Shown: positions 7,073 to 57,633, counted from the first letter of the stretch. The stretch is DNA of 59,213 bases from Spirochaetia bacterium (GCA_027859095.1 JAQIBN010000082.1:1-59213); one strand, 5' to 3'. Notes: generated from the letters alone by a model not told the origin. A program made the numbers and translations.

Positions 7073-7402
7073 TTAAACAGAAATTATATTGTGCTTCTCA
7101 AGAAAATTTTTCTCTTGTTCCAGAATCTGCAAAATCCTTTTAGCAGAACCGTTGGGTTTATTCCTTCCCGTTTCCCATGCTTCAACAGTTTTTATAGATA
7201 CCCCTAATGCCGCAGCAAAAATTGTTTGAGATAGATTTAATTGATTCCGGATATCTTTTACTTTTTTACCATCAAAGTCAGGTAGTGGTGCGATCGATAC
7301 CTTGCGTCTTTTTGCAGAGGGCAAACTACCTTTTGTATATTCCAGACCTTGATTAAGTCCAGATATAATACTGTCAAAAGCAGGATTGTTCTTTTTTCTC
7401 AT
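7073..7402 (-). CDS. higA: HigA-2-like XRE-family HTH antitoxin
   Basis: 109 aa. C-terminal XRE HTH (IRNQLNLSQTIFAAALGVSIKTVEAWETG). 4-nt overlap with the upstream toxin, in the toxin-first HigBA order. Confidence 0.8.
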   Translation of the reverse strand: MRKKNNPAFDSIISGLNQGLEYTKGSLPSAKRRKVSIAPLPDFDGKKVKDIRNQLNLSQTIFAAALGVSIKTVEAWETGRNKPNGSAKRILQILEQEKNFLEKHNIISV

Positions 7403-7746
7403 AAATTGTTCCCTCTTAAAATATTCTTTATATCAGTAATGATAACCTTAACAGCTTTCTTCTCTTCCTGAGAAAGACTGACTTTGACACTTTTAGGAAA
7501 ACAGGTAATAAGATAGATTTTTTCATAAAAAGGAAAATCTACATATAGTATACGAATTCCTCCGCTTTTCCCTTTTCCTGGTAAATTCCAGCGGAATTTC
7601 CTTAAACCACCTGTACCCTGTATCATACTGCCTACTTCCGGATATTCACAAAGGAAAGCTTCAAATTCTCTTTGTTGTAAATCTTTCAGACCACACTTAT
7701 CCCATTGCTTGTCAAACTCAGGCATATAAATAAACTCTCGTGTCAT
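7399..7746 (-). CDS. higB: HigB-2-like (RelE superfamily) toxin
   Basis: 115 aa. The motif GSMIQGTGGLRKFRWNLPGKGKSGGIRILYV closely resembles the Vibrio HigB-2 type motif (GDVIQGTGGLRKIR..KGKGKRGG.RIIYY, recalled from memory). Confidence 0.8.
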   Translation of the reverse strand: MTREFIYMPEFDKQWDKCGLKDLQQREFEAFLCEYPEVGSMIQGTGGLRKFRWNLPGKGKSGGIRILYVDFPFYEKIYLITCFPKSVKVSLSQEEKKAVKVIITDIKNILRGNNL

Positions 7747-7903: not shown

Positions 7904-9622
7904 ATGTATAAAAACAGAGAGCCATGGAAAGATCTTGAAGTATATAAAGGAAAATATTTTTCGGGTGAATGGCCGACACTACCTGAATTATTTAATATAA
8001 CAACAGATCGTTTTCCCGAAAGAAGGTGTTTTTCCACTTATGAGCCTGATTTGTTTTTTACTTATAAGGAAGCTCACACTAAAATACTAGCTGTCTCCAA
8101 TTATTTGAAAAAAATTGGAGTTAAAAAGGGTGATAAAGTAGCTGTTTCCGGTAAAAATTCACCTGAATGGAGCATTGCTTATCTATCAATTATGTTTGCT
8201 GGTGCAACAGTAGTTCCTCTTGATTATCAGCTGCATTCAGAAGAAATTGCAGCATTGTTAGATTTTTCCGGTGTTTCAATTCTCTTTCTGGATGAAGAAA
8301 AATTTGATGAAATAGGGAGATTGAAAAGTAATATTAATCTTATATCGCTGGCTCCGGATAAAAAAAATTATATTCTAAATTTAGAAGATTCTGGTGAAAT
8401 CCCCGGAGATTTGCCGAATGAAAACGATCTGGCAGCTATTCTTTTTACTTCCGGAACCACAGGTAATCAAAAAGGGGTTATGTTAACCCAGAGTAATTTT
8501 GTAAGTGACTGTTTTTTGTCCCAGGGCCACATGGCCTTGTCTGAAAATGATGTATTTTATGCTCTTCTTCCACTTCATCATTCCTATTCTATGTTAGCAG
8601 TTTTTATTGAAGCAATATCTGTAGGTGCAGAAATAGTATTTGCAAAAAAACTTGTTGTTACTCAAATACTAAAGGATCTTAAAATTGGAAATGTGACAAT
8701 GTTTCTTGCTATTCCAATGTTGTTTAATAAAATGCTCAAAGCTTTAATGAATGGAATTAAAGAAAAGGGTATAGTAATTTATGGAATAATTAAATTTTTA
8801 ATGTTTATAAGTGGAATAATCAAAAAAACAACCGGCAAAAATCCTGGTAAGAAAATGTTTAAAGGTTTACTTGCGAAGTTGTCTTTAGATACAAACCGTA
8901 TTTGTATTTGTGGTGGCGGCCCTCTTCCCTCTTCCACGTTTAAAATGTTTAATCAACTTGGAATAGATTTTGTTCAGGGCTATGGTCTGACTGAAACCTC
9001 TCCTATTATTGCCCTTAATCCTGTTGAACATTACAAAGAAGATTCTGTAGGTGCCTTAACTCCTCATACAGAGATGAAAATTCAGGATCCTGATGAAACA
9101 GGTTCCGGTGAAATACTTGTAAAAGGCCCTATGGTTATGCAGGGTTATTATAAAAACAAAGATGCCACAGATGAGATATTTACTGAAGATGGATGGCTGA
9201 AAACCGGCGATGTTGGTTACCTGGATGATGAAAATTTCTTATACCTTACAGGTAGAAAAAAATCTTTAATTGTGACCGAAGGCGGAAAGAATGTCTTTCC
9301 CGAAGAGATAGAAGATCATTTTCAGCTGTTTGATGAGATTGAACAGGTATTGGTAAGGGGATATGTTCTTGATGGTAAAATGAAAACTGAAGGAATAGAG
9401 GCTTTGTTCTTTCCAAATGAAGAGTTTCAAAAGAAACAGTTTGAAAAGGCTGGTCTTGAATATAACAAAAAAAATATTAAGATTGAATTTGATAAAGTAA
9501 TAGAACAGGTAAACAGAGAACTTCTGCCTTATAAAAGAATATCAAGACTGAGAGTTCTTGATGAAGCCATGGAGATGACAACAACCAAGAAAATTAAAAG
9601 ATTTAAGGTTTCAGCCGATTAG
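7904..9622 (+). CDS. Long-chain fatty acid-CoA ligase (AMP-forming, ANL superfamily)
   Basis: 572 aa. AMP-binding motif ILFTSGTTGNQKGVMLTQ, plus GYGLTETS and GWLKTGDVGY. Confidence 0.85.
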   Translation: MYKNREPWKDLEVYKGKYFSGEWPTLPELFNITTDRFPERRCFSTYEPDLFFTYKEAHTKILAVSNYLKKIGVKKGDKVAVSGKNSPEWSIAYLSIMFAGATVVPLDYQLHSEEIAALLDFSGVSILFLDEEKFDEIGRLKSNINLISLAPDKKNYILNLEDSGEIPGDLPNENDLAAILFTSGTTGNQKGVMLTQSNFVSDCFLSQGHMALSENDVFYALLPLHHSYSMLAVFIEAISVGAEIVFAKKLVVTQILKDLKIGNVTMFLAIPMLFNKMLKALMNGIKEKGIVIYGIIKFLMFISGIIKKTTGKNPGKKMFKGLLAKLSLDTNRICICGGGPLPSSTFKMFNQLGIDFVQGYGLTETSPIIALNPVEHYKEDSVGALTPHTEMKIQDPDETGSGEILVKGPMVMQGYYKNKDATDEIFTEDGWLKTGDVGYLDDENFLYLTGRKKSLIVTEGGKNVFPEEIEDHFQLFDEIEQVLVRGYVLDGKMKTEGIEALFFPNEEFQKKQFEKAGLEYNKKNIKIEFDKVIEQVNRELLPYKRISRLRVLDEAMEMTTTKKIKRFKVSAD

Positions 9623-9627
9623 TAATT

Positions 9628-10758
9628 ATGCTTAAAAGAAATTTTATATTGATGATTTTTTTATTTATAGGTTTATATCTTTATTCATGGGAAGCTGGGT
9701 TATTTTCTTCAAGTTTTGTAAATGTTCCTGAAGGATGGTATGTACTTGAAAATAGAGAAGATAAAGTAACCTTTGCTGATCCTGCAGATTCAGCATATTT
9801 CCAAATTAAACGATACCCTGGGGATAGTTTTCGTTCTGTTTTGGACTTATACAAGTATGTCTCCAGAGAACTTGGTTCTACTGGAGAAGGGGAGTTATTT
9901 CTATTTGATTCAAAAGAGAGTTATTTTTCAAGTATATCTTTTGAATCGTCCGGCTTTTCTTATATGGGGTATCTGGTTTGTATAGAAGGTGAATCTGAAG
10001 ATATTGTTCTTTTATCATTTAGTGATAGTGATAATTATAATATTTATCATGATTTTATAATTTCTGCCATTGATTCGTATTCTATGAATGAATCTGGATT
10101 AAAAAACCCCGGTCCCGTCAGTCAGTATTATTATCCCTGGCCTGGAAGAGATAAAACAATTAACTATCTAACTATGAATGGTCAAAAAATACCTGTTTCA
10201 TTTGATATAAATGAAATTGATACTGCAAAAGTTCTAATAGAGAGGGAAGCAAGAATACTTGTTCAATATACCAATTCTAATTTATCTGATTTAGCATGGG
10301 CAAGATATTACAAACTTATTTATAGAGATAATATTAACCGTCTTCGTAGAGTAGCACGAATAGCTGCCAGTGAAATAGCTGACGATTTTGAGAGTTTAAG
10401 CCCACTGGAAAAGAGTTCAAAGCTGCTACAATGGATCCAGGGGTTTGAGTATCTAAGAACAGGTACATTATCTGACTTCATGGGGCCAATAGATACTGTT
10501 TTTGAGGCTGCAGGAGATTGTGACTCAAGATCACTCTTGTATGTTATGCTACTTGAATATAATGGCATAGATAGTATATTAATGGTGTCATCAGAATATA
10601 GCCATAGCCTTACAGGTGTAGCAGTTGAAGGTAAGGGGGCACATTATTATTACGAGGGATCAGAGTATCTAATAGCAGAGACAACTGATAATGTTTCTAT
10701 AGGACTCATAGACCAGGATATGGCTGATCCTTCTAAATGGATGGGGATAAAATTTTAA
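9628..10758 (+). CDS. Secreted/membrane-anchored hypothetical protein with a C-terminal transglutaminase-like Cys-His-Asp fold (tentative)
   Basis: 376 aa with an N-terminal hydrophobic signal or anchor. The C-terminal pattern GDCDSRSLLYVMLL ... YSHSLTGV ... AETTD resembles the transglutaminase-like cysteine peptidase triad. Confidence 0.45.
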   Translation: MLKRNFILMIFLFIGLYLYSWEAGLFSSSFVNVPEGWYVLENREDKVTFADPADSAYFQIKRYPGDSFRSVLDLYKYVSRELGSTGEGELFLFDSKESYFSSISFESSGFSYMGYLVCIEGESEDIVLLSFSDSDNYNIYHDFIISAIDSYSMNESGLKNPGPVSQYYYPWPGRDKTINYLTMNGQKIPVSFDINEIDTAKVLIEREARILVQYTNSNLSDLAWARYYKLIYRDNINRLRRVARIAASEIADDFESLSPLEKSSKLLQWIQGFEYLRTGTLSDFMGPIDTVFEAAGDCDSRSLLYVMLLEYNGIDSILMVSSEYSHSLTGVAVEGKGAHYYYEGSEYLIAETTDNVSIGLIDQDMADPSKWMGIKF

Positions 10759-11718: not shown

Positions 11719-12870
11719 ATGGATAAATTTACAATTTCACCAGTACCTGAACTTATTTTTGGTAGGGGTACAATTAAAGAATTACCTCCTATTATTGCTA
11801 AAATGGGTTTTTTAAATATTGCAGTTATAACAGGTGGAAAATCATTTGTAAATTCGATTTATTGGCAGTTCCTCTCTGATTCCTTTTCTGCAAATGGCCT
11901 TAAAGTATACCATTTTATATCTATAGGAGAGACAACTCCGGAAACAGTAGATGGAATTGTACAGAATCTCCTTGAAAGAAATATTGATGTTGTATTAGCA
12001 ATTGGTGGCGGGACTGTCATGGACACAGGAAAAGCTGTATCTGCAATGCTATGTATGTCTGGTTCTATTATTGATTATCTTGAGGGTGTTGGTACAAAAG
12101 AACCCACAGGAAAACGAAAACCTTTAATATGTGTACCTACCACTTCAGGGACAGGTTCTGAAGCCACAAAAAATGCTGTAATAACTAAAATTGGAAATAA
12201 TGGTTTTAAAAAATCACTACGCCATAAGGCTTATATCCCTGATACGGTTATTATTGATCCGGATTTAATAATGAGTTGTCCAATTCCTCTTACCATTGCT
12301 TCAGGTATGGACGCTGTAACTCAATTACTGGAATCATATGTTTCTATTAAATCTAATCCATTTACAGATCAACTTGCTTTAAATGGTCTTAAACTGGCAG
12401 GAAGTAGTTTGTCCCGGCTTGTTAATAATCCTGAAGACATGGATGCCAGAGTAAAAATGGCTTATGCAGCATATTTATCTGGAATAACTCTTGCAAATGC
12501 TGGTCTTGGGGTTGTACATGGAGCAGCTTCAGTTTTGGGCTCAATGAGATCTATTCCTCACGGTGTTGTATGCGGAACATTACTTGGATCAGCTACGGAA
12601 ATGATAATCGCAAAATTGAACAAACATAAAAATCCACTTAATGACGCAAGTCTTATCAAATATTCAGAAGCAGGTATTGCGTTAACTGGAAGTAATAATC
12701 TAATTGAGACTCTTAATAATTGGGTAAATGACTATAAAGTTTCAAGATTATCAGAATATGGTTTCACAGAAATGGAACTTGTTTCTGCATCAAAATTAAC
12801 AGGATTAAAAAATACACCTTTCCAGCTAGATAAAAAAGATATTTTTTCTATATTATTTTCAAGGTTGTGA
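11719..12870 (+). CDS. Iron-containing alcohol dehydrogenase family protein
   Basis: Fe-ADH motifs GGGTVMDTGKA, PTTSGTGSE and GVVHGAA. The ATG at 11719 is preferred over the GTG at 11704. Confidence 0.85.
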   Translation: MDKFTISPVPELIFGRGTIKELPPIIAKMGFLNIAVITGGKSFVNSIYWQFLSDSFSANGLKVYHFISIGETTPETVDGIVQNLLERNIDVVLAIGGGTVMDTGKAVSAMLCMSGSIIDYLEGVGTKEPTGKRKPLICVPTTSGTGSEATKNAVITKIGNNGFKKSLRHKAYIPDTVIIDPDLIMSCPIPLTIASGMDAVTQLLESYVSIKSNPFTDQLALNGLKLAGSSLSRLVNNPEDMDARVKMAYAAYLSGITLANAGLGVVHGAASVLGSMRSIPHGVVCGTLLGSATEMIIAKLNKHKNPLNDASLIKYSEAGIALTGSNNLIETLNNWVNDYKVSRLSEYGFTEMELVSASKLTGLKNTPFQLDKKDIFSILFSRL

Positions 12871-12979
12871 AAACTTAGAAAACTACTATATATAAATATA
12901 TTGATTTTTTATGTTAGTTAAGTTAACATACTATTCACATTGCGTTTATAAGATTAAAGAGAAATGGTGGAGAAGCTGA

Positions 12980-13732
12980 TTGCAACATAAAAATCATTTA
13001 ATACACTATTTATTAGCTTTGCTTACAATAATTCTGATTCCGGTCATGCAATCCTGCAGTCTAAAACAAGTTCTCAATATAGATAGTAGAGGATCAGGAA
13101 ATGTGAATTTTGAACTGACTCTTGCACCATTCTTTGTCGAAGTCACAGAGCAGTTATCAGCGCTTTTTCCCGAAGAAGGGGAAATCCCTGAAGAAGGGCA
13201 AAAACTATTTGATCTTGAAAAAATTAACGAAGACTTTTCTAAAGGAACAGGTACCATCTTAGAGAATTTGGAATCACCTTCGAATAATATTCTAAAGGGA
13301 AACTTGATTTTCGATAATATATCAACTGCATTAAATGGAGCCGGCACAAATAATATTTTAGATATTTTTAGTTTTACGACTGTAAATAATATACATACTT
13401 TATCTGTTGTCTTTAATTATAAAACTGTAGAGAAATTTTTGACAGCAAATCCTTCATTTAATTCACCTTTAATGGAGAACTTTGGTCCTCTTGCAAATAG
13501 AGGACTTAGTGATGAAGATTTTCTTGAAATGATGCAATTTGCTCTTGGTGACGAGAGCCGTTTAGGAATTAAGGGATCATTTTTATTTATGGATGTTAAT
13601 GTTAAAGGTAAAATAGTTGATCAAATTGGTGGAATTGTAGTTGATCAGGATACTGTCAGATTCCAGATACCACTGTTAAGAATTCTTTTATTGGATGAAC
13701 CTGAATCTTTCTCTGTACGTTTTAGTGACTAA
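12980..13732 (+). CDS. Hypothetical lipoprotein
   Basis: 250 aa. TTG start preceded by GGTGGAG. Signal peptide ending in VMQSC (a loose lipobox). No recognisable domain. Confidence 0.45.
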   Translation: MQHKNHLIHYLLALLTIILIPVMQSCSLKQVLNIDSRGSGNVNFELTLAPFFVEVTEQLSALFPEEGEIPEEGQKLFDLEKINEDFSKGTGTILENLESPSNNILKGNLIFDNISTALNGAGTNNILDIFSFTTVNNIHTLSVVFNYKTVEKFLTANPSFNSPLMENFGPLANRGLSDEDFLEMMQFALGDESRLGIKGSFLFMDVNVKGKIVDQIGGIVVDQDTVRFQIPLLRILLLDEPESFSVRFSD

Positions 13733-13778
13733 AAAGGTATATTTTTTTGATTAAGTAGAAATTGATTTTGGAGGGGAT

Positions 13779-14900
13779 ATGAGCATCGAAATAAGAGAAG
13801 TACTTTCCAGGAAGGATTTAAAAAAATTCGTTAAATTCCCCTTCGACCTTTATAAAGATAATCAATATTGGGCTCCTCCATTTATTGCCGATGAAATTAA
13901 AACCCTCAGTTACGATATAAATCCTGCGTTTGAATATTGTAATGCAAAATATTGGTTAGCTTACAAAAATGGGAAAATAGTTGGAAGGATTGCAGCAATA
14001 ATTAATAAAAAATTAATTGAGAAATGGAACGTAAAAAAAGCAAGATTCGGATGGATCGATTTTATTGATGATAAGGAAGTATCCAGGGTTCTTCTGGAAA
14101 AAGCAGAAGACTGGGCGAGAGAAAATGATTTAGATGCAATTGAAGGCCCTATGGGTTTTACCGATTTGGATGAAGAAGGAATGCTTATTGAAGGATTTGA
14201 AGAGCAGGGTACCTACCCTATGATCTATAATCACTCTTATTATCCTGAACATTTGAATGAGTTGGGTTATCAAAAAGAAGTAGATTGGCTCGAATTTGAA
14301 ATAAAAGTACCTGATGAGATTCCTGAGAAAATAGTCAGGGTGAACAATCTAATTCTTAAGCGATCCAAATTAAAATTACTTGAAGCAAAAAAAGCTAAAG
14401 AATATATGCCATATATACCTGGCTTTTGGAAGATTATTGAAGAAGCTTATGCTGAACTTTTTGGAGCAATTCCTTTTACAGATAAGCAGAAGAAATTTTA
14501 TACTGATCAATATTTTGGATTTTTACTCCCTGAATATTCAAAATTTATTATTAATGAAAAAGACGAAGTTGTTGCTGTCGGCCTTTCATTTCCTTCTTTT
14601 ACCAAAGCACTTAGAAGATCAAAAGGCAGACTTTATCCTTTTGGTGTGTTTCATATGCTTTATGCTATTAAAAAACCAACAATTCTTGATTTTTATCTAA
14701 TTGGGGTAAAAAAAGAATATATTGGTAATGGTGTTATCTCAATTATGATGAATGAAATAAACAAGAATGCCATAAAAAATGGGATTAAGTTTTGTGAGAC
14801 ATCTGGTGAATTGGAAGATAATAAGGCTGTGCAGGATCTGTGGAGACACTATGAACACAGGCAGCATAAAAGAAGGAGATGTTTTATAAAAGCATTATAA
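13779..14900 (+). CDS. GNAT-fold acyltransferase-like protein (candidate bacterial ceramide synthase-type N-acyltransferase; tentative)
   Basis: 373 aa. N-terminal region IREVLSRKDLKKFVKFPFDLY and the later GVKKEYIGNGVISIMM segment are consistent with an acyl-CoA N-acyltransferase fold. Immediately upstream of the KDSR-like and SPT-like genes, with a 3-nt gap. Confidence 0.5.
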   Translation: MSIEIREVLSRKDLKKFVKFPFDLYKDNQYWAPPFIADEIKTLSYDINPAFEYCNAKYWLAYKNGKIVGRIAAIINKKLIEKWNVKKARFGWIDFIDDKEVSRVLLEKAEDWARENDLDAIEGPMGFTDLDEEGMLIEGFEEQGTYPMIYNHSYYPEHLNELGYQKEVDWLEFEIKVPDEIPEKIVRVNNLILKRSKLKLLEAKKAKEYMPYIPGFWKIIEEAYAELFGAIPFTDKQKKFYTDQYFGFLLPEYSKFIINEKDEVVAVGLSFPSFTKALRRSKGRLYPFGVFHMLYAIKKPTILDFYLIGVKKEYIGNGVISIMMNEINKNAIKNGIKFCETSGELEDNKAVQDLWRHYEHRQHKRRRCFIKAL

Positions 14901-14903
14901 AAT

Positions 14904-15728
14904 ATGAAAAATTTTGCAAATAAACTGGTATATATTACCGGCGGCTCCAGTGGAATAGGTCTGGCTGCTGCCAGAGAGTTTCTTAAAGATGGAGCTTCTG
15001 TCCTTCTTATTTCCAGAAGTAAAGATAAATTGATTGATGCAGCTGAAATATTGTCTATGAATATAGGTTCTGAAACAAAAGGAAGAATTAATCTTTGTCC
15101 ACTGGATATAACAGAATATGATAAAGTTCAGAATGTTATAGCTGAACAGCTCATAAATATTGGGGTTCCTGATATAGTTTTTAATTGTGCAGGTATGGCA
15201 CATCCTGATTATTTTGAAAAAATTTCCTATCATGAGTATGAGAAGACGATCTCAACAAATTTAACTGGAACCTGGAATATATTAAGCGCATTGGTACCTT
15301 TCATGAAGATGGACAGCCATATTATAAATACGTCATCTATTGGAGGTTTTGTGGGGGTATTTGGATTTACTGCTTACAGTGCCTCTAAATTTGCTGTAAT
15401 GGGCCTGTCAGAAGCCCTTAGGGGTGAAATGAGGTCGAAAAGGATACATGTTTCTGTCCTTTGTCCTCCAGATACAGATACTCCGGGAATGGTCGTGGAA
15501 AACAAGACAAAGCCTAAAGAGACTCATGCAATCTCAGGGAATGTAAGACTTATGAGTTCAGAAGAAGTTGCAAAAGCGCTTATTAAGGGAATCCAACGAA
15601 GAAAGTTTATAATTATTCCAGGTGCAATGGGAAAATTTACTTTTCTTATGAAAAGATTATTTCCTTCTCTTGTATTTGCAATAATGGATAATGATGTCAA
15701 GAAGATAAATAGCACCAGGGAGAAGTAG
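14904..15728 (+). CDS. Short-chain dehydrogenase/reductase, 3-ketodihydrosphingosine reductase-like
   Basis: 274 aa. ITGGSSGIG cofactor motif, S...YSASK catalytic residues and a hydrophobic C-terminal tail. The pattern is like eukaryotic KDSR. Confidence 0.7.
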   Translation: MKNFANKLVYITGGSSGIGLAAAREFLKDGASVLLISRSKDKLIDAAEILSMNIGSETKGRINLCPLDITEYDKVQNVIAEQLINIGVPDIVFNCAGMAHPDYFEKISYHEYEKTISTNLTGTWNILSALVPFMKMDSHIINTSSIGGFVGVFGFTAYSASKFAVMGLSEALRGEMRSKRIHVSVLCPPDTDTPGMVVENKTKPKETHAISGNVRLMSSEEVAKALIKGIQRRKFIIIPGAMGKFTFLMKRLFPSLVFAIMDNDVKKINSTREK

Positions 15729-15733
15729 TCAAT

Positions 15734-16942
15734 ATGAGTAGTAATTCAAAAATATTTGATAAATGTTACGCATTTAAGGAAGCTCAGCAAGCCCGAGAAG
15801 CAGGAATATATCCATTTTTTAAACCAATAGGAAAGAATGCTGGGACAAAGGTTATTATTGAGGGTCGTGAGTTACTAATGGCTGGATCCAATAATTATCT
15901 TGGTTTGGCAGGTGATCCAAGAATGATAGAAGCTAGTGTAAATACTTTGAAAGAATATGGTACAAGTTGTTCCGGTTCAAGATTTATGAATGGCACACTA
16001 GCTTTACATGAAGAGTTGGAAGGGAATTTGGCAGATTTTGTTGGTAAAGAAGAAGCCCTTTGTTTTACTACAGGTCATCAGACAAATATGGGTGCTATTT
16101 CTACTCTTGTTGGACGTGGTGACCATGTTATTACAGATAAATATAATCATGCATCTATAATGGATGGTATATTTCTAACTGTAGGTATGAATAAAGCAGT
16201 AAATGTACATAGGTATCGGCACAATAATTATGAAGAGCTTGAGAGAATACTAAAATCCATACCAGAAGATGCTTCAAAATTAATAGTAACAGATGGTGTT
16301 TTCAGTATGGAAGGATCTATTGTTGACCTTCCAAAGATCAGATCCCTGGCGGATAAGTATCAGGCAGCAATATATCTTGATGAAGCTCATGCTATTGGTG
16401 TACTAGGAGAAACAGGAAGAGGAACTGCTGAATACTATAATAATTCTGCAATTGCAGATGTAATGATGTGTACATTTTCAAAATCTTTTGGTTCTATCGG
16501 TGGGTTTGTAGCCGGTGATTCTAAAATTATTGACTATATCAAACATTTTGCACGACCCCTGATGTTCAGTGCCAGTATGCCTCCGGCCAATATAGTTGCA
16601 GCATCAACTGCATTGGAGATTATCAAGAAGGAACCCGAACGTGTTCATCGTCTACAGGAGATTGGAAAAAAAATGGCAAAGGGCTTCGCGGATATGGGAT
16701 TTGATACCGGAACGACCAAGACTCCTATTGTTCCTCTTGTAATTGGTAATAATGAGAAAGCCTTTATTTTCTGGAAAACTCTTTTCGAGAGAGGTGTCTA
16801 TGTTAATCCTGTAATTACTCCCGCAGTACCACCCAACCGTGCAATGATAAGAACCAGTTTTATGTCTACACACACAGATACAGAACTTAATACTATTCTT
16901 GAAATAATTGGTGATACAGGAAGGGAGATAGGATTAATATAA
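15734..16942 (+). CDS. spt: Alpha-oxoamine synthase family PLP enzyme, serine palmitoyltransferase-like
   Basis: 402 aa. GSNNYLGL, GSRFMNGT (the SPT-type variant rather than BioF or Kbl), DEAHA and the PLP-lysine motif TFSKSFGSIGG. Architecture is collinear with Sphingomonas SPT as recalled. Confidence 0.75.
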   Translation: MSSNSKIFDKCYAFKEAQQAREAGIYPFFKPIGKNAGTKVIIEGRELLMAGSNNYLGLAGDPRMIEASVNTLKEYGTSCSGSRFMNGTLALHEELEGNLADFVGKEEALCFTTGHQTNMGAISTLVGRGDHVITDKYNHASIMDGIFLTVGMNKAVNVHRYRHNNYEELERILKSIPEDASKLIVTDGVFSMEGSIVDLPKIRSLADKYQAAIYLDEAHAIGVLGETGRGTAEYYNNSAIADVMMCTFSKSFGSIGGFVAGDSKIIDYIKHFARPLMFSASMPPANIVAASTALEIIKKEPERVHRLQEIGKKMAKGFADMGFDTGTTKTPIVPLVIGNNEKAFIFWKTLFERGVYVNPVITPAVPPNRAMIRTSFMSTHTDTELNTILEIIGDTGREIGLI

Positions 16943-18226
16943 CCCGTCTCTTTTATAGACAACTTCATAATCTATTGATAGTTTTTTGAGTTGTTCCATT
17001 ATCTTATTTTCAAGTCTAAGATTATCACATGAACTGCCAATGTTCATTTCAAGTTTTCCTTTGTAACTGAATAAAGCTGTATTTCTCCCCGGAACCGGGG
17101 AGTTGCATGGAATTATATCAAAGCTTACTATGGCCTCTTCCATTTGTGGTGGCAGTTTAATATCTCCCATATTTGTTAATACTCCAGAATACTGGCTTCT
17201 TGCAAATAGATGGTAGAATACTCTGAATAGTAATTGTTTTACTGCCCTAGGCAATATTCTAAAAAGTAAATTACTCTCAGCTCTTAAATTTCTTGATATC
17301 TGATTTTTAATTGATTCTGAGTGTCTTTCATGTCTAATATCCATGGAAATATTTTCTATGAGTTCTTGAAATGAATATGCGCCATTCGTAATATTGAATG
17401 ACGGTGAATATAAATATGAGAAATTTCTTAGACTTCTTGTAGGGTAATCTTTTCTCAGGTTTACTGGTATTTGTAATCTTATAGGTAGTTTTGATTTTTC
17501 CTTTCCATCTGCGATATCTTCAAGAAACATATCTTGTAAGACAAAAGCATAAATAGCAGCCATATATACATTCAGGGTTGCATTTCCCTTTCTTGCTTTT
17601 TTGCGCACTTCATCAAGATTCATGATGATTCTTGTACTGTAATATTTATCAACAGATATCATCTCTGCTTTCGGGATATAGGCTGGTGGATTCATTTTTA
17701 GAGCAGGACCCTTTTTGGGGAATATATTACGAAATGCACATTCCCATTCTTCATCTGTTGTATCATCTCCAGGTTTTTTGATCAGTACAGATTCCCCAAT
17801 ATCATAATTAGAAATACGTAAGTATTCTGCTGTAAGAGATAATAAAAAACTGAGTGTTCCATAGCCATCTGATAGAATATGTGATAGCTCAAGAGCTATA
17901 CTATTGTCATGGACTTTGATCCTAAATGGAAACTTGTTTTCATTAAAATTTATATATCTGTTAGTCCATTTTGTATCATTTTCTATAATTGGAAGATCTT
18001 CAGTTCTTTCAAATATGTAGTTAAAGAATTGTTTTTTTAAATATACCTGAAAAAATGGGAAGACTTTGATTATCCTTTTAAGCGCTTCATTTAATTGGTT
18101 TTTATCTATTGGCTGCTTTAAAGAAAGAGCTATTCTGGACATAGTTGTCTCTTTCTTCGAATTAATTGATACAAAAATCTGTGCAGCATTGTCTACTGGA
18201 ATCAATCTGGGTACTATTGCGCTCAT
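16934..18226 (-). CDS. Condensation-domain/WS-DGAT/PapA-like acyltransferase (HxxxDG)
   Basis: 430 aa. The SHILSDGYG motif at about residue 115 matches the HHxxxDG acyltransferase catalytic motif. The 3' end overlaps the convergent SPT-like gene by 9 nt. Confidence 0.55.
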   Translation of the reverse strand: MSAIVPRLIPVDNAAQIFVSINSKKETTMSRIALSLKQPIDKNQLNEALKRIIKVFPFFQVYLKKQFFNYIFERTEDLPIIENDTKWTNRYINFNENKFPFRIKVHDNSIALELSHILSDGYGTLSFLLSLTAEYLRISNYDIGESVLIKKPGDDTTDEEWECAFRNIFPKKGPALKMNPPAYIPKAEMISVDKYYSTRIIMNLDEVRKKARKGNATLNVYMAAIYAFVLQDMFLEDIADGKEKSKLPIRLQIPVNLRKDYPTRSLRNFSYLYSPSFNITNGAYSFQELIENISMDIRHERHSESIKNQISRNLRAESNLLFRILPRAVKQLLFRVFYHLFARSQYSGVLTNMGDIKLPPQMEEAIVSFDIIPCNSPVPGRNTALFSYKGKLEMNIGSSCDNLRLENKIMEQLKKLSIDYEVVYKRDGLY

Positions 18227-20496
18227 ATTTTCATCTTAGGAGTAGATTTTAATAGTGGGGGCAATATAATTAATGTAGCTAAACAAGCTGTACTTAAAGT
18301 AAAAACAATTAATAATCCAAAATATCTTATAGGTTGGAATTGTGCAAAACTAAGGAAAAGTAGTCCTGCTACTATAGAAAGAGTAGTTATAGCTATTGGG
18401 CGTCCTGCATGTTTTAATGTTTCTAATATTGCATTTCTATTATTTGTAGGATTTTTTATAGACTGCTTTTGATATTGTAGTAGAAAATGAATAGAGTCAT
18501 CTACACCAACTCCGATTGAAATACATGAAACCATAATTGTAGTCATATCTAAAGGTATTCGGAAAATTGCCATTAAAATAAGACTTGTAAATATTCCTGT
18601 AAGTAATGGTATTAGTGCTAAAAGGCCTTTTGCAATTGATTTAAAAGATATTGAGGCGATTATACCAATAAAAAATAGTGCTGCTAAAGTTGAGACAAGA
18701 AAGTCTCTTCTCATCTGCTTAGAAAGCTGAAGAAAATTCAGGCTCATTCCATTAATTCTCCATACAATATTACTCTCTACATTATTACTTAATATTTCTT
18801 CCAGATCCTGAACCAGCTTTACTGTGTCCTCTTCATCAATGGGTAGGTTTTTTTCTCTATTAAAAGTCCTAATAGAAATACTTATATTAGAATAATCTTT
18901 ATTTGCAATAGTTTCATCTTTGATGACAGTTCCAAATATTCTTGAAACAAGGAGGTTAAGACCTCTTGATTGAAAATTGCCTTCTTTTCCTGTCATAACA
19001 GTACCAGCAAAATTTAAATACCTGGGAAATGAAAATATATAACTAATATTGGGTAATTCAATGAGCTTTTGTTCCAGTTCATACATACTGGACAGTACTT
19101 CAGGCTTAAGGAAATAACCCTCTTCAGGACCTTTTAATTCTATCTTTAGTTCTTCAAACCCACCAATTTTTTCTAAAAATATTTTATGATCAATTATCAA
19201 ATTTGATGATTTGGGAAAGTACTTACTTGGGCTTGTATTAAATGAAACTCGCGGCATTAGAATAATAAAAGTGGCTAATATTAAAATAATTAAAATAATC
19301 GCCTGAATCTTCCAGTTTACAATTCGTGCACCAAAATGATTCAGAAACTTGGATAATGGATCCTTATCCAGAATCCTTAACTTTTTTTTCTCTGGAGCTG
19401 GTTGTAAAGTAAGGAAAGCTGGTAAGAGAGTTATTGAAAGGATAGCTGTGAAAAATATACCAAGGGAAGTTATCATTGCAAATTCCCTTGTTTGCCTGAT
19501 TGTTGCCAGCATCAGGCTCATTAATCCTATGAGTGTAGTAAAGGAAGCTAATATTACTGTTCCGCTAATACCTGTAACAGATTTTGCAATAATATCAACT
19601 TTAGGTTCATTACTATATTTTGAAAGGTTATAGTAAGCATTCATAACATGAATACTATAGGAGCTGCCAAGGGTAAGTACGAGGGGTGGTGATATTATGC
19701 TGACCATTGATAACTTAAAACCTGCCAGGACCATAATACCCAGAGAGAATATTGTACCACTTATGACAATGGTAATTGGAAGAAAAACTGCACGTTTTGA
19801 TTGAAAGCCCAGATAGTAGCTTACGAGTATAGTTGCAATTACAAGTAATAATAGTTTACCAAATCCTTCAGTTAGAAAAATTTCAGTTTCTGCGGAAAAT
19901 GGCAGTGTACCAGTGACGACAACCTCAAGGTTTTTTCTTAATGGTTCAATTGTTGAATTTATCTCCTGCATCATACTTTTGTAATTATTAGTTTTTTCCA
20001 ATAATATAAGAACCACTAAAGCATCTTTATTTTTTGAACTCAAAAAACCCGTTATGAAGTTTGATTTACTTAACCTGTTTTTAAATATCAAAAGGTCTTC
20101 AATATTTTCAGGTGCAGTACCACCCGGAGAGAGTGGTACTGCTGTAAGTCTGGAACCAATTTTCTCTAGGGTTGTAAATGAAAAGGGATCAATAATTTTT
20201 TTTACAGGAAGTATTGACTGGAGCTTTGAATAGCTATTCTGAAAGTTTTGTAGACTATCTACTGAAAAAAGATTATCTCCACTTACCATTATTAGTAATT
20301 TATCATATATTTCTATATTTTCCTGACCAATCCCTTCTGTTAATTCTTTTGGTAGAAGGCTTTCAACATCCGATTCTATTTGCAATCGTTGGAGAGGCAA
20401 GGCAAATAAAATAGTAATGATTGATGCTATTCCAATTATTATCCATGGATGTTTAACACTGAAATTTACTATTTTATGAGTAAAATATTTAAACAT
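18223..20496 (-). CDS. MMPL/RND-superfamily lipid exporter (COG1033-like)
   Basis: 757 aa. Two blocks of about 6 TM helices, each following a large loop, as in the MMPL/HpnN architecture. 4-nt overlap with the downstream acyltransferase and 8-nt overlap with the upstream pfp. Confidence 0.8.
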   Translation of the reverse strand: MFKYFTHKIVNFSVKHPWIIIGIASIITILFALPLQRLQIESDVESLLPKELTEGIGQENIEIYDKLLIMVSGDNLFSVDSLQNFQNSYSKLQSILPVKKIIDPFSFTTLEKIGSRLTAVPLSPGGTAPENIEDLLIFKNRLSKSNFITGFLSSKNKDALVVLILLEKTNNYKSMMQEINSTIEPLRKNLEVVVTGTLPFSAETEIFLTEGFGKLLLLVIATILVSYYLGFQSKRAVFLPITIVISGTIFSLGIMVLAGFKLSMVSIISPPLVLTLGSSYSIHVMNAYYNLSKYSNEPKVDIIAKSVTGISGTVILASFTTLIGLMSLMLATIRQTREFAMITSLGIFFTAILSITLLPAFLTLQPAPEKKKLRILDKDPLSKFLNHFGARIVNWKIQAIILIILILATFIILMPRVSFNTSPSKYFPKSSNLIIDHKIFLEKIGGFEELKIELKGPEEGYFLKPEVLSSMYELEQKLIELPNISYIFSFPRYLNFAGTVMTGKEGNFQSRGLNLLVSRIFGTVIKDETIANKDYSNISISIRTFNREKNLPIDEEDTVKLVQDLEEILSNNVESNIVWRINGMSLNFLQLSKQMRRDFLVSTLAALFFIGIIASISFKSIAKGLLALIPLLTGIFTSLILMAIFRIPLDMTTIMVSCISIGVGVDDSIHFLLQYQKQSIKNPTNNRNAILETLKHAGRPIAITTLSIVAGLLFLSFAQFQPIRYFGLLIVFTLSTACLATLIILPPLLKSTPKMKI

Positions 20497-22192
20497 TTTC
20501 GATATTATTTCCTTCCAGCTGCAGGGTCATAGATGTAGCGTCACAAACCTCTGAAGGTCCGAAATATTGAATTGCTCCTGGAAACATATAAGTAGACTTG
20601 ATGCCCCAGCTATCCCTTTTAGATGCAAATTCGGCAAATGGTTTTCCATTTAAATCTACCATTGCTTTCTTTATTACTGGTTTCATTTTCCCGTGTCTCT
20701 GTTCAAGGTTCATCATCATGGTTATTGGAACCCCGCCTGCTGTCCACTTACCTACTGGTTTTGATAGATTTCGAATTGATGATAAATACCCTGTTAGCCC
20801 TGATGCCGCCAGAATATATGCGTTAAAACCCAAAGAATAGCAGTAATCAGTATCAAAATTAGATGGAAATGCACATCTTCCTTCATAACCAAAGAAATGA
20901 TCCTGGGGGCTGAAAGTTCCCTTAAACTTGCCTTCACTTTCCATTTCATCCAGTATTGAGGCAACCATTTGAATAAGCAGTTTCTCAGTATCAATACGTG
21001 ATACCTGTACATTGCCGTGAGGGTCTCTATCCACTAGTAACTGTCTTTGGATATTGTTAGGGAGTGTAGAAAAAACGTAAGATGAATCTCTGGAGAGTTC
21101 CCGATTTATCCATCTCGATTGATCCTCAAAAGTATGAAGGGTTTCAAAATGGTCAGTATGGTCTGCAAGCAGTGTATTTAATTCTGAAATTAGTTGTTTC
21201 ATTTCCGGGATAAATTCAATAAGACCTTCAGGTATAAGAACTATTCCGTAATTGCTTCCCATCTCACTTCTTTTTGCAATTATACTCACCATATCCATAA
21301 CTATATCTGTTAATGATTTATGATTATGTTCAATTTCTTCAGAAATAAGAGCAATATTAGGGTGAGTTTGCAGAGCACATTCAAGGCAGATATGAGAAGC
21401 ACTTCTTCCCATTAACTTAATAAAATGCCAGTATTTTTTTGCAGAATTGGCATCTTTTTCTATGTTTCCAATTAATTCAGAATAAGTTTTTGTAGCTGTA
21501 TCGAATCCAAAGGAAACTTCAATGTATTCATTTTTAAGATCACCATCTATTGTTTTTGGTACTCCTATAACAGAAATACCTGAATTTTTCTGTTTGAAAT
21601 ATTCAGCAAGGACTGCTCCATTTGTATTCGAGTCATCTCCACCTACTATAACTATAGATGAAATATCAAGTAATTTACATACATCCTCACAGATATCAAA
21701 TTGTTCAGTTGATTCAAGTTTAGTTCGTCCGGATCCAATAATATCAAATCCACCAGTATTTCTGTATTGATCTACAATCTCAGCACTAAGTTCAATAGAT
21801 TTATTATCAAGTATACCTGAAGGACCACCAAGGAACCCTATTAGTTTAGAGTCTGGGTTAGCCTTTTTCATGGCATCATACAGACCTGAAATAACATTAT
21901 GTCCTCCAGGAGCTTGCCCTCCGGATAATACTACTCCAATATTGATACTTTCTGATTCTATACCTTCCTGTAGTGTTACAGTTTCTATAAAAGGTGCTCC
22001 ATATGTTCTTGGAAAAAGTTCTGTCAATTCCTTTTGATCTGTTTCTGATTTAGTAGAACCTTTGGGATTTATTCCAATTTTATGAATATCTCCTTTTAGT
22101 ACTTCTGGAAGTTTTGGTTCATATTTGTAACGCTCTGTCTGTAATGGTGAATATAACATATTTAACTCCTGCCTATTTATTGTATAACTCAA
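20489..22192 (-). CDS. pfp: Pyrophosphate-dependent 6-phosphofructokinase (long PFP type)
   Basis: 567 aa. Contains GGQAPGGHN, GGDDSNTN, PKTIDGDL and MGR, which are hallmarks of PPi-PFK. Confidence 0.9.
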   Translation of the reverse strand: MSYTINRQELNMLYSPLQTERYKYEPKLPEVLKGDIHKIGINPKGSTKSETDQKELTELFPRTYGAPFIETVTLQEGIESESINIGVVLSGGQAPGGHNVISGLYDAMKKANPDSKLIGFLGGPSGILDNKSIELSAEIVDQYRNTGGFDIIGSGRTKLESTEQFDICEDVCKLLDISSIVIVGGDDSNTNGAVLAEYFKQKNSGISVIGVPKTIDGDLKNEYIEVSFGFDTATKTYSELIGNIEKDANSAKKYWHFIKLMGRSASHICLECALQTHPNIALISEEIEHNHKSLTDIVMDMVSIIAKRSEMGSNYGIVLIPEGLIEFIPEMKQLISELNTLLADHTDHFETLHTFEDQSRWINRELSRDSSYVFSTLPNNIQRQLLVDRDPHGNVQVSRIDTEKLLIQMVASILDEMESEGKFKGTFSPQDHFFGYEGRCAFPSNFDTDYCYSLGFNAYILAASGLTGYLSSIRNLSKPVGKWTAGGVPITMMMNLEQRHGKMKPVIKKAMVDLNGKPFAEFASKRDSWGIKSTYMFPGAIQYFGPSEVCDATSMTLQLEGNNIENV

Positions 22193-24044: not shown

Positions 24045-25052
24045 ATGAAAAAAATATTGTTTTTGTCACCTGCTATTTTCCTATTTATGATTTCCGCATG
24101 TTCTATTAATCAGTTTGCAGTACGAATTGTTGCAGATGCCCTTACGGGTAGTGAAGGTGGATCCGTTTTTATGACAGATGATGATCCTGAATTTATTGCT
24201 GCTGCTCTTCCTTTTGCATTGAAAACTTTTGAGAGCTTATTACAATCAGATCCCAAAAATATTGATTTAATTGAAGCAACTGCAGGTGGATTTATATCTT
24301 ATGCAAATGGTTTCCTCCAATCTCCTGCAGAACTAATGGAATATGACCAAATAGAGGTGAAAGAAAGACTTCTAACCCGGGCCGCAGCAATGTACAGGCG
24401 GGGTGGTGGATATGCATCCCGTGGACTTGAATTAGTCTATCCTGAATTTAATTTAAGTTTTTCCAATGGAGACAGTAACTTAGCTTTAATGAATCTGGAG
24501 AATAATGCTGTTCCTTTTCTATACTGGAAAGCAGCAGCAATTATGGGTGAGTTCTCGGTGGACAGTTTTAACCCTGAACTGATGGTAAAGATCCCTCAGG
24601 CTGTTGCTTTCGCTGTAAGAGCTTTGGAATTGGAGGAAGACTATAATAAAGGGGCTATCCATGACCTTTTGATTTCCATTTTTGCTAATTTACCGGTGAA
24701 TTTGATATATAGTGCAGATGAAACAGTCAGTACCTATTCTGTAAAACAGGTTTTGGAAGATTATTACAGCAGTTATGGCTATGGTTTTAAAGAAATGTCT
24801 CTTGAAGATCAAGCTATATTCCATTTTGATCTATCCATTCAAATATCACGTGGATTGAATGCGTCACCATATGTTTCAATTAGTCCAATATATATAATCA
24901 ATCAGGATACGGATAGTTTTATTTCGGTTCTAAATAAAGCTATAGAGATAGATCTGGATTTAAATCCTGAAAACAGATTGCAGAATATTATAAGTCAAAG
25001 AAAGGCCAGATGGTTTCTGGAGCATATAGAAGACTATTTTTTTATACTTTAA
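24045..25052 (+). CDS. tatT: TatT-like TPR lipoprotein accessory component of a TRAP transporter
   Basis: 335 aa with lipobox MISAC and a helical-repeat body. Sits immediately upstream of the DctP-like and fused DctQM genes, as in the Treponema pallidum Tp0956-0958 TPAT arrangement. Confidence 0.65.
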   Translation: MKKILFLSPAIFLFMISACSINQFAVRIVADALTGSEGGSVFMTDDDPEFIAAALPFALKTFESLLQSDPKNIDLIEATAGGFISYANGFLQSPAELMEYDQIEVKERLLTRAAAMYRRGGGYASRGLELVYPEFNLSFSNGDSNLALMNLENNAVPFLYWKAAAIMGEFSVDSFNPELMVKIPQAVAFAVRALELEEDYNKGAIHDLLISIFANLPVNLIYSADETVSTYSVKQVLEDYYSSYGYGFKEMSLEDQAIFHFDLSIQISRGLNASPYVSISPIYIINQDTDSFISVLNKAIEIDLDLNPENRLQNIISQRKARWFLEHIEDYFFIL

Positions 25053-25067
25053 TTACCAGGAGACCTA

Positions 25068-26066
25068 ATGCAAATTAGAAGGATATTACTGATTTTTATT
25101 TTTATATTTTTCACAGGGACAACTGTTTTTTCTTTAACAATGAAATTAGGTAGTTTAGCTCCCAGAAATTCTCCATGGGATAAAACTCTTAATGAAATCG
25201 CAGCAGAATGGAAAACAATATCAGGAGGAAAGATTCAACTGAAAATTTATCCCGGCGGAATTACCGGTAATGAGGATGATACTCTTAGAAAATTGAGAGT
25301 TGGAGCGTTGGATGGAATGATTGCCTCAACAATGGGCCTTAACAAAATATCCACTGATCTTTTTGCGTTAAGCCTTCCCCTGCTTATTCATGATGAAGGT
25401 GAACTCAATTTTGTAATGAATAAAACTTATGAAACCTTTCATAAGATTATGTCAGATAAAGGATTTGAATTAGTAGGATGGACGAAGGCTGGATGGACAA
25501 ATGTTTTTTCGAGGGATCCTGTTTATTACCCCAGGGATCTTGAATCACAAAAACTTGGATTTACTACAGGGGAGGTTGTTTTTACTCAAATATTGAAGGA
25601 TCTTGGTTTTCATATAGTTCCTGGTGATTCCATAGACTGGCTGACTGGTCTTCAAAGTGGTCGTACAGATGCACTATTGCTTTCTTCACTAATTGCTGCA
25701 GCTTATCAGATTTTCCCAATTGCAGATAATATGCTTGATTTTCAGCTGGCACCAATTCTTGGGGCAATAGTGTTTAGCGAAAGATCCTGGAAGAAAATAC
25801 CCGAGGAGTACAGACAGGATTTTCTGGATGTAATAAAAGAAAAAATTATTACTTTGGATGCAGAGGCACTGGCACTTGAAAAAACCGCACTGCAAGTAAT
25901 GCTTGATAACGGACTTACGGTTAACGCTGCTAATAATGATGTTGTGGCAGCCTGGAAAGATATTGTAAATGATCTCTATGCAAAAGAGGGAATAATAGGA
26001 TCTCTGGTTTCCAGGGACATATATAACGAGATTATTTTCTATACAGAAGAATACAGAAATAACTGA
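25068..26066 (+). CDS. TRAP transporter solute-binding protein (DctP family)
   Basis: 332 aa. Signal peptide and DctP-like N-terminal region (MKLGSLAPRNSPWDK...IQLKIYPGG). Confidence 0.8.
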   Translation: MQIRRILLIFIFIFFTGTTVFSLTMKLGSLAPRNSPWDKTLNEIAAEWKTISGGKIQLKIYPGGITGNEDDTLRKLRVGALDGMIASTMGLNKISTDLFALSLPLLIHDEGELNFVMNKTYETFHKIMSDKGFELVGWTKAGWTNVFSRDPVYYPRDLESQKLGFTTGEVVFTQILKDLGFHIVPGDSIDWLTGLQSGRTDALLLSSLIAAAYQIFPIADNMLDFQLAPILGAIVFSERSWKKIPEEYRQDFLDVIKEKIITLDAEALALEKTALQVMLDNGLTVNAANNDVVAAWKDIVNDLYAKEGIIGSLVSRDIYNEIIFYTEEYRNN

Positions 26067-26073
26067 TAGAACA

Positions 26074-34919: not shown

Positions 34920-35450
34920 ATGGATGAATATTTTTCAGAAGTATCAGAAGAGGTGCAAAATCACTTGAAACAGCTTGTTGGTTCTGTAAATTTGCCTTCA
35001 GGAGCTGATGCTCTTGAAGTTTTGGCAAAAGCCTGGCTTGAGAAAGAAAAGGTTTTTATGTCTCAGATAAGAGAGCGGAATTTAGAAGAGGCAGATGAGT
35101 TTTCTGTAGAAGAACCAAGGGGCGCATTGTTAATGACCTATTCCGGTTCGCTTCTGACATTAGGACCTATAAGCGAAGACGGACGAAAAGTTGAATATGC
35201 GAGTGTTGGTCTACGATCCGATGTTCCTGATAGTGCTGAAAAAGATGGATCAGTTCTTAGTTCCGATGTATCTGTGGGCGGATCGGCTGAATTCCTACTT
35301 GGCCCAATTAAAAAGAGCTCACCAGTTTATAAAATTGCGGTAGTTCGGGAAGAGATGCCACTGGAAGAGGAAGAAGAATTTCTTTCTGAAGTTACACAGA
35401 TAATGGCTGATGATTTTGTAGAAATCAACAAGACTTTGATAATAGAGTAA
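34920..35450 (+). CDS. Stand-alone paralog of the unassigned domain found in the HU fusion
   Basis: 176 aa. Shared blocks are LLMTYSGSLLTLGP / IVMTYSGSIVSIGP, KVEYASVGLRSDVP / EVEYASIHLRTDVP, plus a C-terminal helix. Its stop lies 1 nt before the phosphatase ATG. Confidence 0.65.
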   Translation: MDEYFSEVSEEVQNHLKQLVGSVNLPSGADALEVLAKAWLEKEKVFMSQIRERNLEEADEFSVEEPRGALLMTYSGSLLTLGPISEDGRKVEYASVGLRSDVPDSAEKDGSVLSSDVSVGGSAEFLLGPIKKSSPVYKIAVVREEMPLEEEEEFLSEVTQIMADDFVEINKTLIIE

Positions 35451-35451
35451 T

Positions 35452-36462: not shown

Positions 36463-36467
36463 AGAGT

Positions 36468-38081: not shown

Positions 38082-38114
38082 GAAAAATAACTAACAATAA
38101 TATAAGGAGATAAT

Positions 38115-38999: not shown

Positions 39000-39019
39000 G
39001 AATAATTGGAGGATTAAGA

Positions 39020-49478: not shown

Positions 49479-49489
49479 GTTTGGATGTA

Positions 49490-54380: not shown

Positions 54381-54398
54381 GGCGGGACAAAGGTTAAA

Positions 54399-57632: not shown

Positions 57633-57633
57633 A

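Follow-up and report, generated by a model that had tools for sequence, protein, structure and literature searches.

The genetics of bacterial sphingolipids has been worked out mainly in Caulobacter and Bacteroides. The ceramide pathway of Caulobacter and the sphingomonads was reportedly described by Stankeviciute in 2022 and by Olea-Ozuna in 2021, and its gene set comprises a serine palmitoyltransferase (Spt), a bacterial ceramide synthase (bCerS; CC_1154, Swit_3908) and the reductase CerR (CC_1164, Swit_3897). Among bacteria, reduction by an enzyme of the 3-ketodihydrosphingosine reductase (KDSR) type has been demonstrated with BT_0972 of Bacteroides thetaiotaomicron, for which an identity of ∼16–30% to Tsc10/FVT1 is reported and whose gene does not cluster with spt (PMC9278070). 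In Pseudomonas MYb115, PfSgaC is a proposed 3-ketosphinganine reductase encoded in a polyketide synthase cluster and not beside Spt, and the KDSR step was there termed unusual for bacteria other than Bacteroides and Prevotella (PMC12134224). Here we analyse a stretch of 59,213 nucleotides from a Spirochaetia bacterium (GCA_027859095.1, JAQIBN010000082.1:1-59213), hereafter the window, in which three adjacent genes encode a GNAT-type acyltransferase, a short-chain dehydrogenase/reductase (SDR) and an alpha-oxoamine synthase (AOS). From the families of the encoded proteins, this putative operon is likely to make a ceramide-type lipid.

Three linked genes and their protein families

An earlier note on this DNA had placed three co-directional genes here, separated by 3 and 5 nt, and the raw sequence confirmed the open reading frames (ORFs), their plus-strand coordinates (Table 1) and both gaps. 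The junctions read TAA-aat-ATG between the GNAT and SDR genes (3 nt) and TAG-tcaat-ATG between the SDR and spt genes (5 nt); a GGAGG Shine-Dalgarno sequence lies 4 nt 5′ of the first ATG and GGGAG precedes the third gene, spt. The GC content of the operon region (0.345–0.351) is the same as that of the remainder of the window. Scans for consensus promoters and terminators stayed at the shuffled background (40 versus 33.5 expected and 4 versus 4.4 expected, respectively) and an Rfam scan of positions 12500–21000 gave no match, so that the operon call is based on gene spacing and conservation. The GNAT–SDR–AOS order, together with the same convergent downstream gene pair, was also found in a Spirochaetes metagenome-assembled genome (MAG) from Guaymas (L002), whose counterparts of the three proteins are 72, 53 and 78% identical, respectively, and in an ENA contig (L164). 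As the genes flanking this five-gene set in L002 and L164 are wholly different from those in the window, its recurrence argues that the adjacency of the three genes is not due to chance. The organism is a spirochaete, since the closest loci belong to Spirochaetes MAGs and one cluster member, with an identity of at least 90%, carries the name Spirochaetaceae.

The assignment of the AOS to the serine palmitoyltransferase (SPT) type, proposed earlier from its motifs, was supported by NCBIfam scores, solved relatives, active-site residues and tree position. Its best NCBIfam model was SerpalmtaseCFB (NF047600) with 494.9 bits, followed by BioF (366.8 bits), Kbl (350.7 bits), HemA (246.8 bits) and the CqsA-type model (192.4 bits). 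A sequence search of the PDB placed the SPT of Sphingobacterium multivorum (8guh, 3a2b) first with 397 bits, ahead of Thermus BioF/KBL (270 bits) and the sphingomonad SPTs (256–264 bits), and the identity to the Bacteroidota-type SPT is 47.5%. The motifs GSRFMNGT (residues 81–88) and TFSKSFGSIGG, in which the PLP lysine is Lys250, are both present. When the active-site residues described for the S. multivorum enzyme (PMC10196870) were mapped onto the AOS, 16 of 17 proved to be identical (N53, G81, S82, R83, F84, N86, H139, S191, D216, A218, H219, T247, S249, K250, M277 and F278), the exception being Leu84, which is replaced by Met85. In the PLP site, T247, S249, K250, H139, D216, A218 and H219 correspond to S. 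multivorum T241, S243, K244, H138, D210, A212 and H213, respectively, and the serine-contacting loop GSRF(L/M)N (G81-S82-R83-F84-M85-N86), along with N53, corresponds to Gly80–Asn85 and Asn52; the loop of Thermus BioF/KBL at this position reads AVRTIA. In a neighbour-joining (NJ) tree rooted on Thermus BioF/KBL, the window Spt fell inside the SPT clade, whose bounds are set by two characterised enzymes, those of S. multivorum and S. wittichii. By these comparisons, the AOS is a predicted serine palmitoyltransferase of the Bacteroidota type.

Two other identities for the AOS have to be weighed against this evidence. The enzyme might take another amino acid and thus serve the synthesis of a different aminolipid resembling sphingolipids, for instance a capnine-type sulfonolipid made from cysteate, or a 1-deoxy or glycine-derived base, since sulfonolipid synthesis likewise proceeds through an AOS, an SDR and N-acylation (PMC11211663, PMC9304779) and alanine and glycine are poor but accepted substrates of SPTs (PMC10196870). 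We regard this as very unlikely, because the solved cysteate-C-fatty acyltransferase (CFAT; 28eh) scored 192.9 bits against the AOS versus 397 bits for SPT, the residues by which the S. multivorum enzyme touches the serine hydroxyl and carboxylate are all identical, and the window showed no cysteate synthase; a CFAT identity was rejected on the scores. Less credible still is a housekeeping BioF or Kbl enzyme encoded among three genes without a common pathway. Public labels point in that direction, the AOS being a generic class I/II aminotransferase at NCBI and one IMG copy an 8-amino-7-oxononanoate synthase, as does its 40% identity to Thermus BioF/KBL. The BioF and Kbl models nevertheless score ∼130–145 bits below the SPT model, the substrate loop is of the SPT type, no further biotin or threonine genes are adjacent, and the three-gene order is kept in different contexts, with the GNAT and SDR families each linked to spt elsewhere. 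BioF/Kbl and CqsA identities were both discarded, as all of these models rank below that of SPT in NCBIfam and SPT comes first among the solved structures.

The likeness of the SDR to 3-ketodihydrosphingosine reductase, which had been noticed from its motif, was borne out by 42% identity to human KDSR over residues 9–228 (BLASTP, E 3e-53; the reference was NP_002026.1/KDSR_HUMAN, for which an exact sequence match was confirmed). In phmmer searches human KDSR reached 162 bits, the best SDRs of the PDB 104 bits (two domains summed) and 89 bits (single domain), and Cryptococcus Tsc10 78.6 bits. The ITGGSSGIG motif was confirmed at residues 11–19, and its cofactor residues T12-G13-G14-S15-S16-G17-I18-G19 are conserved in the alignment with human KDSR, as are Ser144/145, Tyr158, Lys162 and Arg38; the segment PPDTDTPG...EN.TKP.ET..IS is also common to both proteins. 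The representative of the SDR's cluster is labelled 3-dehydrosphinganine reductase in IMG. Human KDSR carries 26 N-terminal residues and a C-terminal insertion as membrane anchors, which the SDR lacks, and the hydrophobic tail previously ascribed to the SDR did not reach transmembrane grade, the maximum 19-residue Kyte-Doolittle value of the whole protein being 1.25. A hydropathy and signal check detected no signal peptide or transmembrane segment in the GNAT, SDR or Spt protein. A CerR identity was tried and rejected, as the SDR gave no significant alignment with Swit_3897 (E 3.0), and no CerR-like ORF was present in the window at E<1e-8. In terms of sequence, then, the SDR is a KDSR relative of the eukaryote-like class and not of the Caulobacter CerR type.

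A metagenome scan detected many KDSR-type SDRs, six of which directly adjoin an Spt gene (L087, L089, L091, L096, L098 and L100). The Spt proteins encoded beside the SDR in these six contigs are 48–66% identical to the window Spt, and the KDSR-linked Spt proteins, including that of the window, form a single clade in the NJ tree. These contigs, which are taxonomically unassigned, carry no bCerS homologue within 8 kb.

For the 373-aa product of the first gene, an acyl-CoA N-acyltransferase fold had been proposed, and the AlphaFold2 (AF2) model, built on 25 homologues (pLDDT 83.6), is indeed a tandem GNAT. In order to obtain a bCerS reference, the S. wittichii Spt was rebuilt from a PDB alignment and traced through the RW1 protein and the locus L082 to a published table in which Swit_3900 is Spt, Swit_3897 CerR and Swit_3908 the orthologue of CC_1154 (bCerS) with 45% identity (PMC11324152, table S2B). 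The gene order of L082 agrees gene for gene with that table, and Swit_3908 corresponds to L082:19091-20239 (382 aa). The window protein aligned with Swit_3908 end to end (1–373 versus 1–382) with 23% identity (BLASTP, E 3e-36) and 108 bits in phmmer, and a profile comparison with this orthologue gave an hhalign probability of 99.9. This match is comparable to the rule by which bCerS genes have been called elsewhere (e≤1e-30 and ≥50% coverage; PMC11334938), with the reservation that the database sizes differ. Pfam yielded only a weak Acetyltransf_1 footprint at residues 42–120, which is equally weak in Swit_3908; no NCBIfam model matched the protein, nor did a sequence search of the PDB. Foldseek aligned the model with the tandem GNATs 2wpw, 5kf1 and 7q3a and with MshD (2c27) at E values of 1e-13 to 1e-10, its structural matches including the clavulanate tandem GNAT, a glucosamine N-acetyltransferase, MAB_4324 and mycothiol synthase.

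The GNAT family occurs in at least 593 species genomes of the Spirochaetota, Bacteroidota, Ignavibacteriota, Chloroflexota, Cloacimonadota, Marinimicrobia, Planctomycetota, Verrucomicrobiota, Acidobacteriota and Bacillota, and these are largely the phyla for which a Black Sea study describes Spt-like genes (PMC11334938). All 80 relatives retrieved match Swit_3908 over the full length, with E values down to 5e-52. In Bacteroidota and one Phycisphaerae MAG the genes follow the canonical order spt, GNAT and cerR-like epimerase. When the ORFs lying up to 5 kb from the GNAT gene at 81 loci were all clustered, the recurrent neighbours in common with the window module proved to be Spt (19 of the 81 loci), CerR (18), the RND transporter (4) and an SDR of the KDSR-like kind (5), besides a few smaller clusters that recur solely within subsets of the loci. 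This neighbour pattern is the strongest functional evidence for a ceramide synthase, and the assignment of the 373-aa protein to the bCerS family, as a putative ceramide synthase, is supported. Three other neighbour ORF clusters that seemed conserved were rejected as antisense shadow ORFs within the GNAT gene itself; at 41 loci among L004–L077, such long shadow ORFs had been clustered as a false neighbour, a mechanical artefact of ORF calling.

Two variations on this arrangement were observed. Several Chloroflexota and Bacteroidales MAGs (L013, L058, L066, L067 and L078) carry tandem duplicated GNAT genes of the bCerS family, which could represent two ceramide synthases differing in acyl preference. 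In a Bacteroidetes MAG (L050) and an Endomicrobiales MAG (L051), the GNAT gene is followed not by CerR but by a more distant SDR (26–30% identity to the window SDR, 73–98 bits to human KDSR), which may constitute a third reductase solution.

Table 1. Positions of the three linked genes, the convergent gene pair and the ribosome-binding sequence in the window
Feature	Position	Strand	Evidence
Shine-Dalgarno-like GGAGGGG, just 5′ of the GNAT-gene ATG	13770-13776	+	Read from sequence
bCerS-family tandem-GNAT N-acyltransferase (putative ceramide synthase), 373 aa	13779-14900	+	Swit_3908 homology, model, neighbours
KDSR-type classical SDR (putative NADPH-dependent 3-ketosphinganine reductase), 274 aa	14904-15728	+	Human KDSR homology, catalytic residues
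Spt, Bacteroidota-like alpha-oxoamine synthase, 402 aa	15734-16942	+	NCBIfam, PDB, active site, NJ tree
PapA5/condensation-superfamily acyltransferase, 430 aa, convergent (putative role)	16934-18226	-	AF2 model, HxxxDG, conserved adjacency
HAE3/MMPL-type RND transporter with sterol-sensing-like domain, 757 aa (putative role)	18223-20496	-	Pfam, NCBIfam

A proposed route and the order of its steps

From the three protein families and their conserved linkage, which are observed directly, we infer the substrates, the order of the second and third steps and the product. The three genes quite probably form one operon that would make dihydroceramide de novo in the spirochaete cytoplasm. In the first step, Spt would use PLP-Lys250 to join L-serine to a long-chain acyl-CoA, forming 3-ketosphinganine by condensation. 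The KDSR-type SDR would then reduce the 3-keto group with NADPH, yielding sphinganine, and the tandem GNAT of the bCerS family would place a second acyl chain on the amine to give dihydroceramide. All three steps are predicted to take place on the cytoplasmic side.

We lean slightly towards this order of reduction before acylation, because the SDR is close to an enzyme acting on the free base and lacks the export signal that the spatial argument made for Caulobacter needs. The opposite order, in which the GNAT protein would acylate 3-ketosphinganine to 3-oxo-dihydroceramide and the SDR would reduce this product, thereby replacing CerR functionally, appears unlikely but is the main rival. Caulobacter without CerR accumulates oxidised ceramide (PMC11087976), and both 3-ketosphinganine and sphinganine have been reported as acyl acceptors of bCerS (PMC11087976; PMC11324152 supplement). 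Moreover, the gene order GNAT, SDR, Spt does not fix the order of reactions, and in relatives the SDR sits in the slot of cerR. On the other hand, the human enzyme to which the SDR is so similar acts on the free base, and acylation first in Caulobacter is argued from a periplasmic CerR, whereas the window SDR has no signal peptide.

Several observations weigh against a ceramide pathway as drawn here. The 494.9 bits of the window Spt lie below the curated equivalog cut-off of NF047600 (640), a model which was built for Bacteroidota, the window Spt representing a divergent lineage. Raw identity of the AOS to Thermus BioF/KBL (40%) exceeds that to alphaproteobacterial Spt (35%), and for this reason the SPT assignment is based on similarity to the Bacteroidota-type SPT, profile scores and the active site. 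The identity of the GNAT protein to the reference bCerS, the orthologue Swit_3908, is just 23%, and about three-quarters of the GNAT-family loci, many of them on short contigs, have no spt within 5–10 kb, so that wider roles of the family could exist. In Caulobacter acylation precedes reduction (PMC11087976), and the step order proposed for the spirochaete may therefore be wrong. Finally, neither head-group nor acyl carrier protein (ACP) genes were seen within the window.

The operon predicts ceramide production by a clade of free-living spirochaetes. As a hybrid set of three small, soluble proteins, it offers direct experimental access to the question, disputed for bacteria, of whether reduction or acylation comes first, and it bears on whether or not the bacterial and eukaryotic sphingolipid pathways are fully convergent. 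In a metagenomic survey, many Spt-encoding genomes had no CerR nearby (PMC11334938); replacement of CerR by a KDSR-type SDR would explain some of them.

The convergent gene pair and the rest of the window

Downstream of spt, two genes on the opposite strand encode a 430-aa protein and an RND transporter (Table 1). The 3′ end of the 430-aa gene overlaps the spt stop by 9 nt, and the stop of the RND gene overlaps the start of the 430-aa gene by 4 nt, the two genes being translationally coupled. No Pfam family matched the 430-aa protein even at E 10. Among its 75 homologues, those with names are nearly all spirochaetal, and H116xxxD120G121 together with G123 is invariant across 31 sequences. Its AF2 model (pLDDT 88.7) shows a two-lobed, condensation-type fold, for which Foldseek returned PapA5 (1q9j) as the top match (E 1e-15), followed by condensation domains of nonribosomal peptide synthetases, BAHD and WS/DGAT enzymes. 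The RND protein matched the Pfam families MMPL (83.5 bits), Sterol-sensing (50.2 bits) and Patched; in NCBIfam it scored 215 bits with HAE3 (TIGR00921), which is below the cut-off of 352, and more weakly with HpnN and BstA.

The pair recurs in L002, L163 and L164, the RND gene adjoins the GNAT gene in L004 and L006, and at least 12 contigs are apparently common to the match lists of the GNAT and 430-aa proteins. Taken from this gene neighbourhood, a ceramide-related role of the pair is a tentative suggestion. Equally tentative is the wider scheme of a mobile five-gene module, in which a hybrid ceramide pathway would be linked, physically and in function, with an O-acyltransferase of the PapA5 kind and an RND pump resembling MmpL/HpnN, the whole acylating a ceramide-derived lipid and carrying it to the spirochaete outer membrane. 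That these two proteins may modify or export a lipid of the pathway is the least secure part of the explanation; they are concrete candidates for sphingolipid modification and transport. Were the scheme true, the five-gene module would be a candidate sphingolipid export route besides the Lpt-paralogue route reported for Caulobacter, and Spt and KDSR, which open the eukaryotic pathway, would exist in bacteria as a linked gene pair, which would qualify the picture of convergent evolution.

Other contexts of the pair were seen as well. In L163 no spt accompanies it, and a fatty-acid hydroxylase and an acyl-CoA ligase are encoded close by. In the window, a gene resembling PPi-type phosphofructokinase (20489–22192, minus strand; Pfam PFK) shares 8 nt with the start of the RND gene, which has the same orientation, and the pair may thus be co-transcribed with a PFK-like glycolytic gene here, which is not so in L164.

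Upstream of the operon, the acyl-CoA ligase (7904–9622) and iron-dependent alcohol dehydrogenase (Fe-ADH; 11719–12870) to which the earlier note had drawn attention are present, but neither is conserved beside the module in L002 or L164; the Fe-ADH may start at ATG 11719, as had been assumed, or equally at GTG 11704. These two genes and two upstream lipoprotein-like ORFs were rejected as parts of the module on the grounds of their absence there, and a YhbY-like gene and a dCMP deaminase gene, also upstream, are likewise not found beside the module in the two contigs. The ORF at 12980–13732 (plus strand), which ends 46 nt upstream of the operon and has no counterpart in L002, encodes an N-terminal signal-like hydrophobic segment with a possible lipobox Cys at VMQSC and belongs to no Pfam family. 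A similar hydrophobic segment precedes a weak transglutaminase-like match in the ORF at 9628–10758 (plus strand). At 7073–7746 (minus strand) lies a probable toxin–antitoxin pair, in which the gene for a 115-aa RelE-like protein (weak Pfam RelE) overlaps that of a 109-aa HTH/MqsA-like antitoxin by 4 nt.

The remaining window has ordinary chromosomal content. It includes a TatT-type TRAP transporter set (24045–27933) with a T-component, a DctP-like binding protein and a fused DctQM permease; a cluster of genes for a Ser/Thr protein kinase, an FHA-domain protein and a VWA-domain protein, along with two ORFs without a family match (34920–40402); and a cluster resembling type II secretion or type IV pilus systems (47737–58357) with a prepilin peptidase, a secretin, a GspE-like ATPase, a GspF-like platform protein, a pilin-like protein with an N-methylation motif and several family-less ORFs. 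No tRNAs were detected within the window.

Comparison with known systems

The components of the locus are of known kinds, and we regard it as a variant whose combination was not found described in the literature searched. That combination would consist of a bCerS with a KDSR-type reductase replacing CerR, in one predicted operon of the Spirochaetota, joined to the acyltransferase–RND pair. No report of sphingolipids or of such genes in Spirochaetota was found in the literature searched, where sphingolipids and the phylum came up together only in gut-microbiome correlation papers; the scope of this negative is limited by a metagenomic survey that reports Spt-like genes in 38 phyla, the names of which are only partly visible (PMC11334938).

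The earlier note had held that Caulobacter uses exactly these enzyme classes. This was correct for Spt and bCerS but not for the reductase, since CerR is of the epimerase type and has no significant similarity to the SDR; the operon would thus be a hybrid and not a copy of the Caulobacter set. In common with the Caulobacter and sphingomonad systems, the window has a homologous Spt, a homologous full-length tandem-GNAT bCerS and a clustered arrangement of the genes. It differs from them in its non-CerR reductase, in having no dedicated ACP or acyl-ACP synthetase, and in the absence of nearby LptF/G paralogues, ceramide kinase and fatty-acid hydroxylase. Furthermore, CerR of Caulobacter is periplasmic, whereas all three window enzymes are predicted to be cytoplasmic.

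Mycobacterial PapA and MmpL proteins form pairs for lipid acylation and export. The pair in the window is like that of PapA5 and MmpL7 in combining a PapA5-like HxxxD acyltransferase with an RND transporter of the MMPL family. It differs in that the 430-aa protein is only ∼14% identical to the mycobacterial enzyme, the host is a spirochaete and the link to ceramide is one of gene neighbourhood.

The Bacteroidota-type clusters of Flavisolibacter (L032) and Chitinophagaceae (L011) and that of the Phycisphaerae MAG (L028) hold the closest Spt lineage (44–50% identity) and GNAT proteins of the same family (45–51% identity). Their gene order is spt, bcerS and cerR, the last of the epimerase type, in contrast to bcerS, KDSR-type SDR and spt in the window. 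The window SDR agrees with human KDSR/FVT1 in its cofactor motif, in the catalytic triad of Ser, Tyr and Lys and in the segment PPDTDTPG...TKP.ET, but of the two only the human protein has an N-terminal signal anchor and a C-terminal membrane insertion; similarity to fungal Tsc10 is much lower than that to human KDSR. BT_0972 and PfSgaC provide SDR-type precedents for a KDSR-like step in bacteria, and are set apart from the window SDR by the descriptions given of them.

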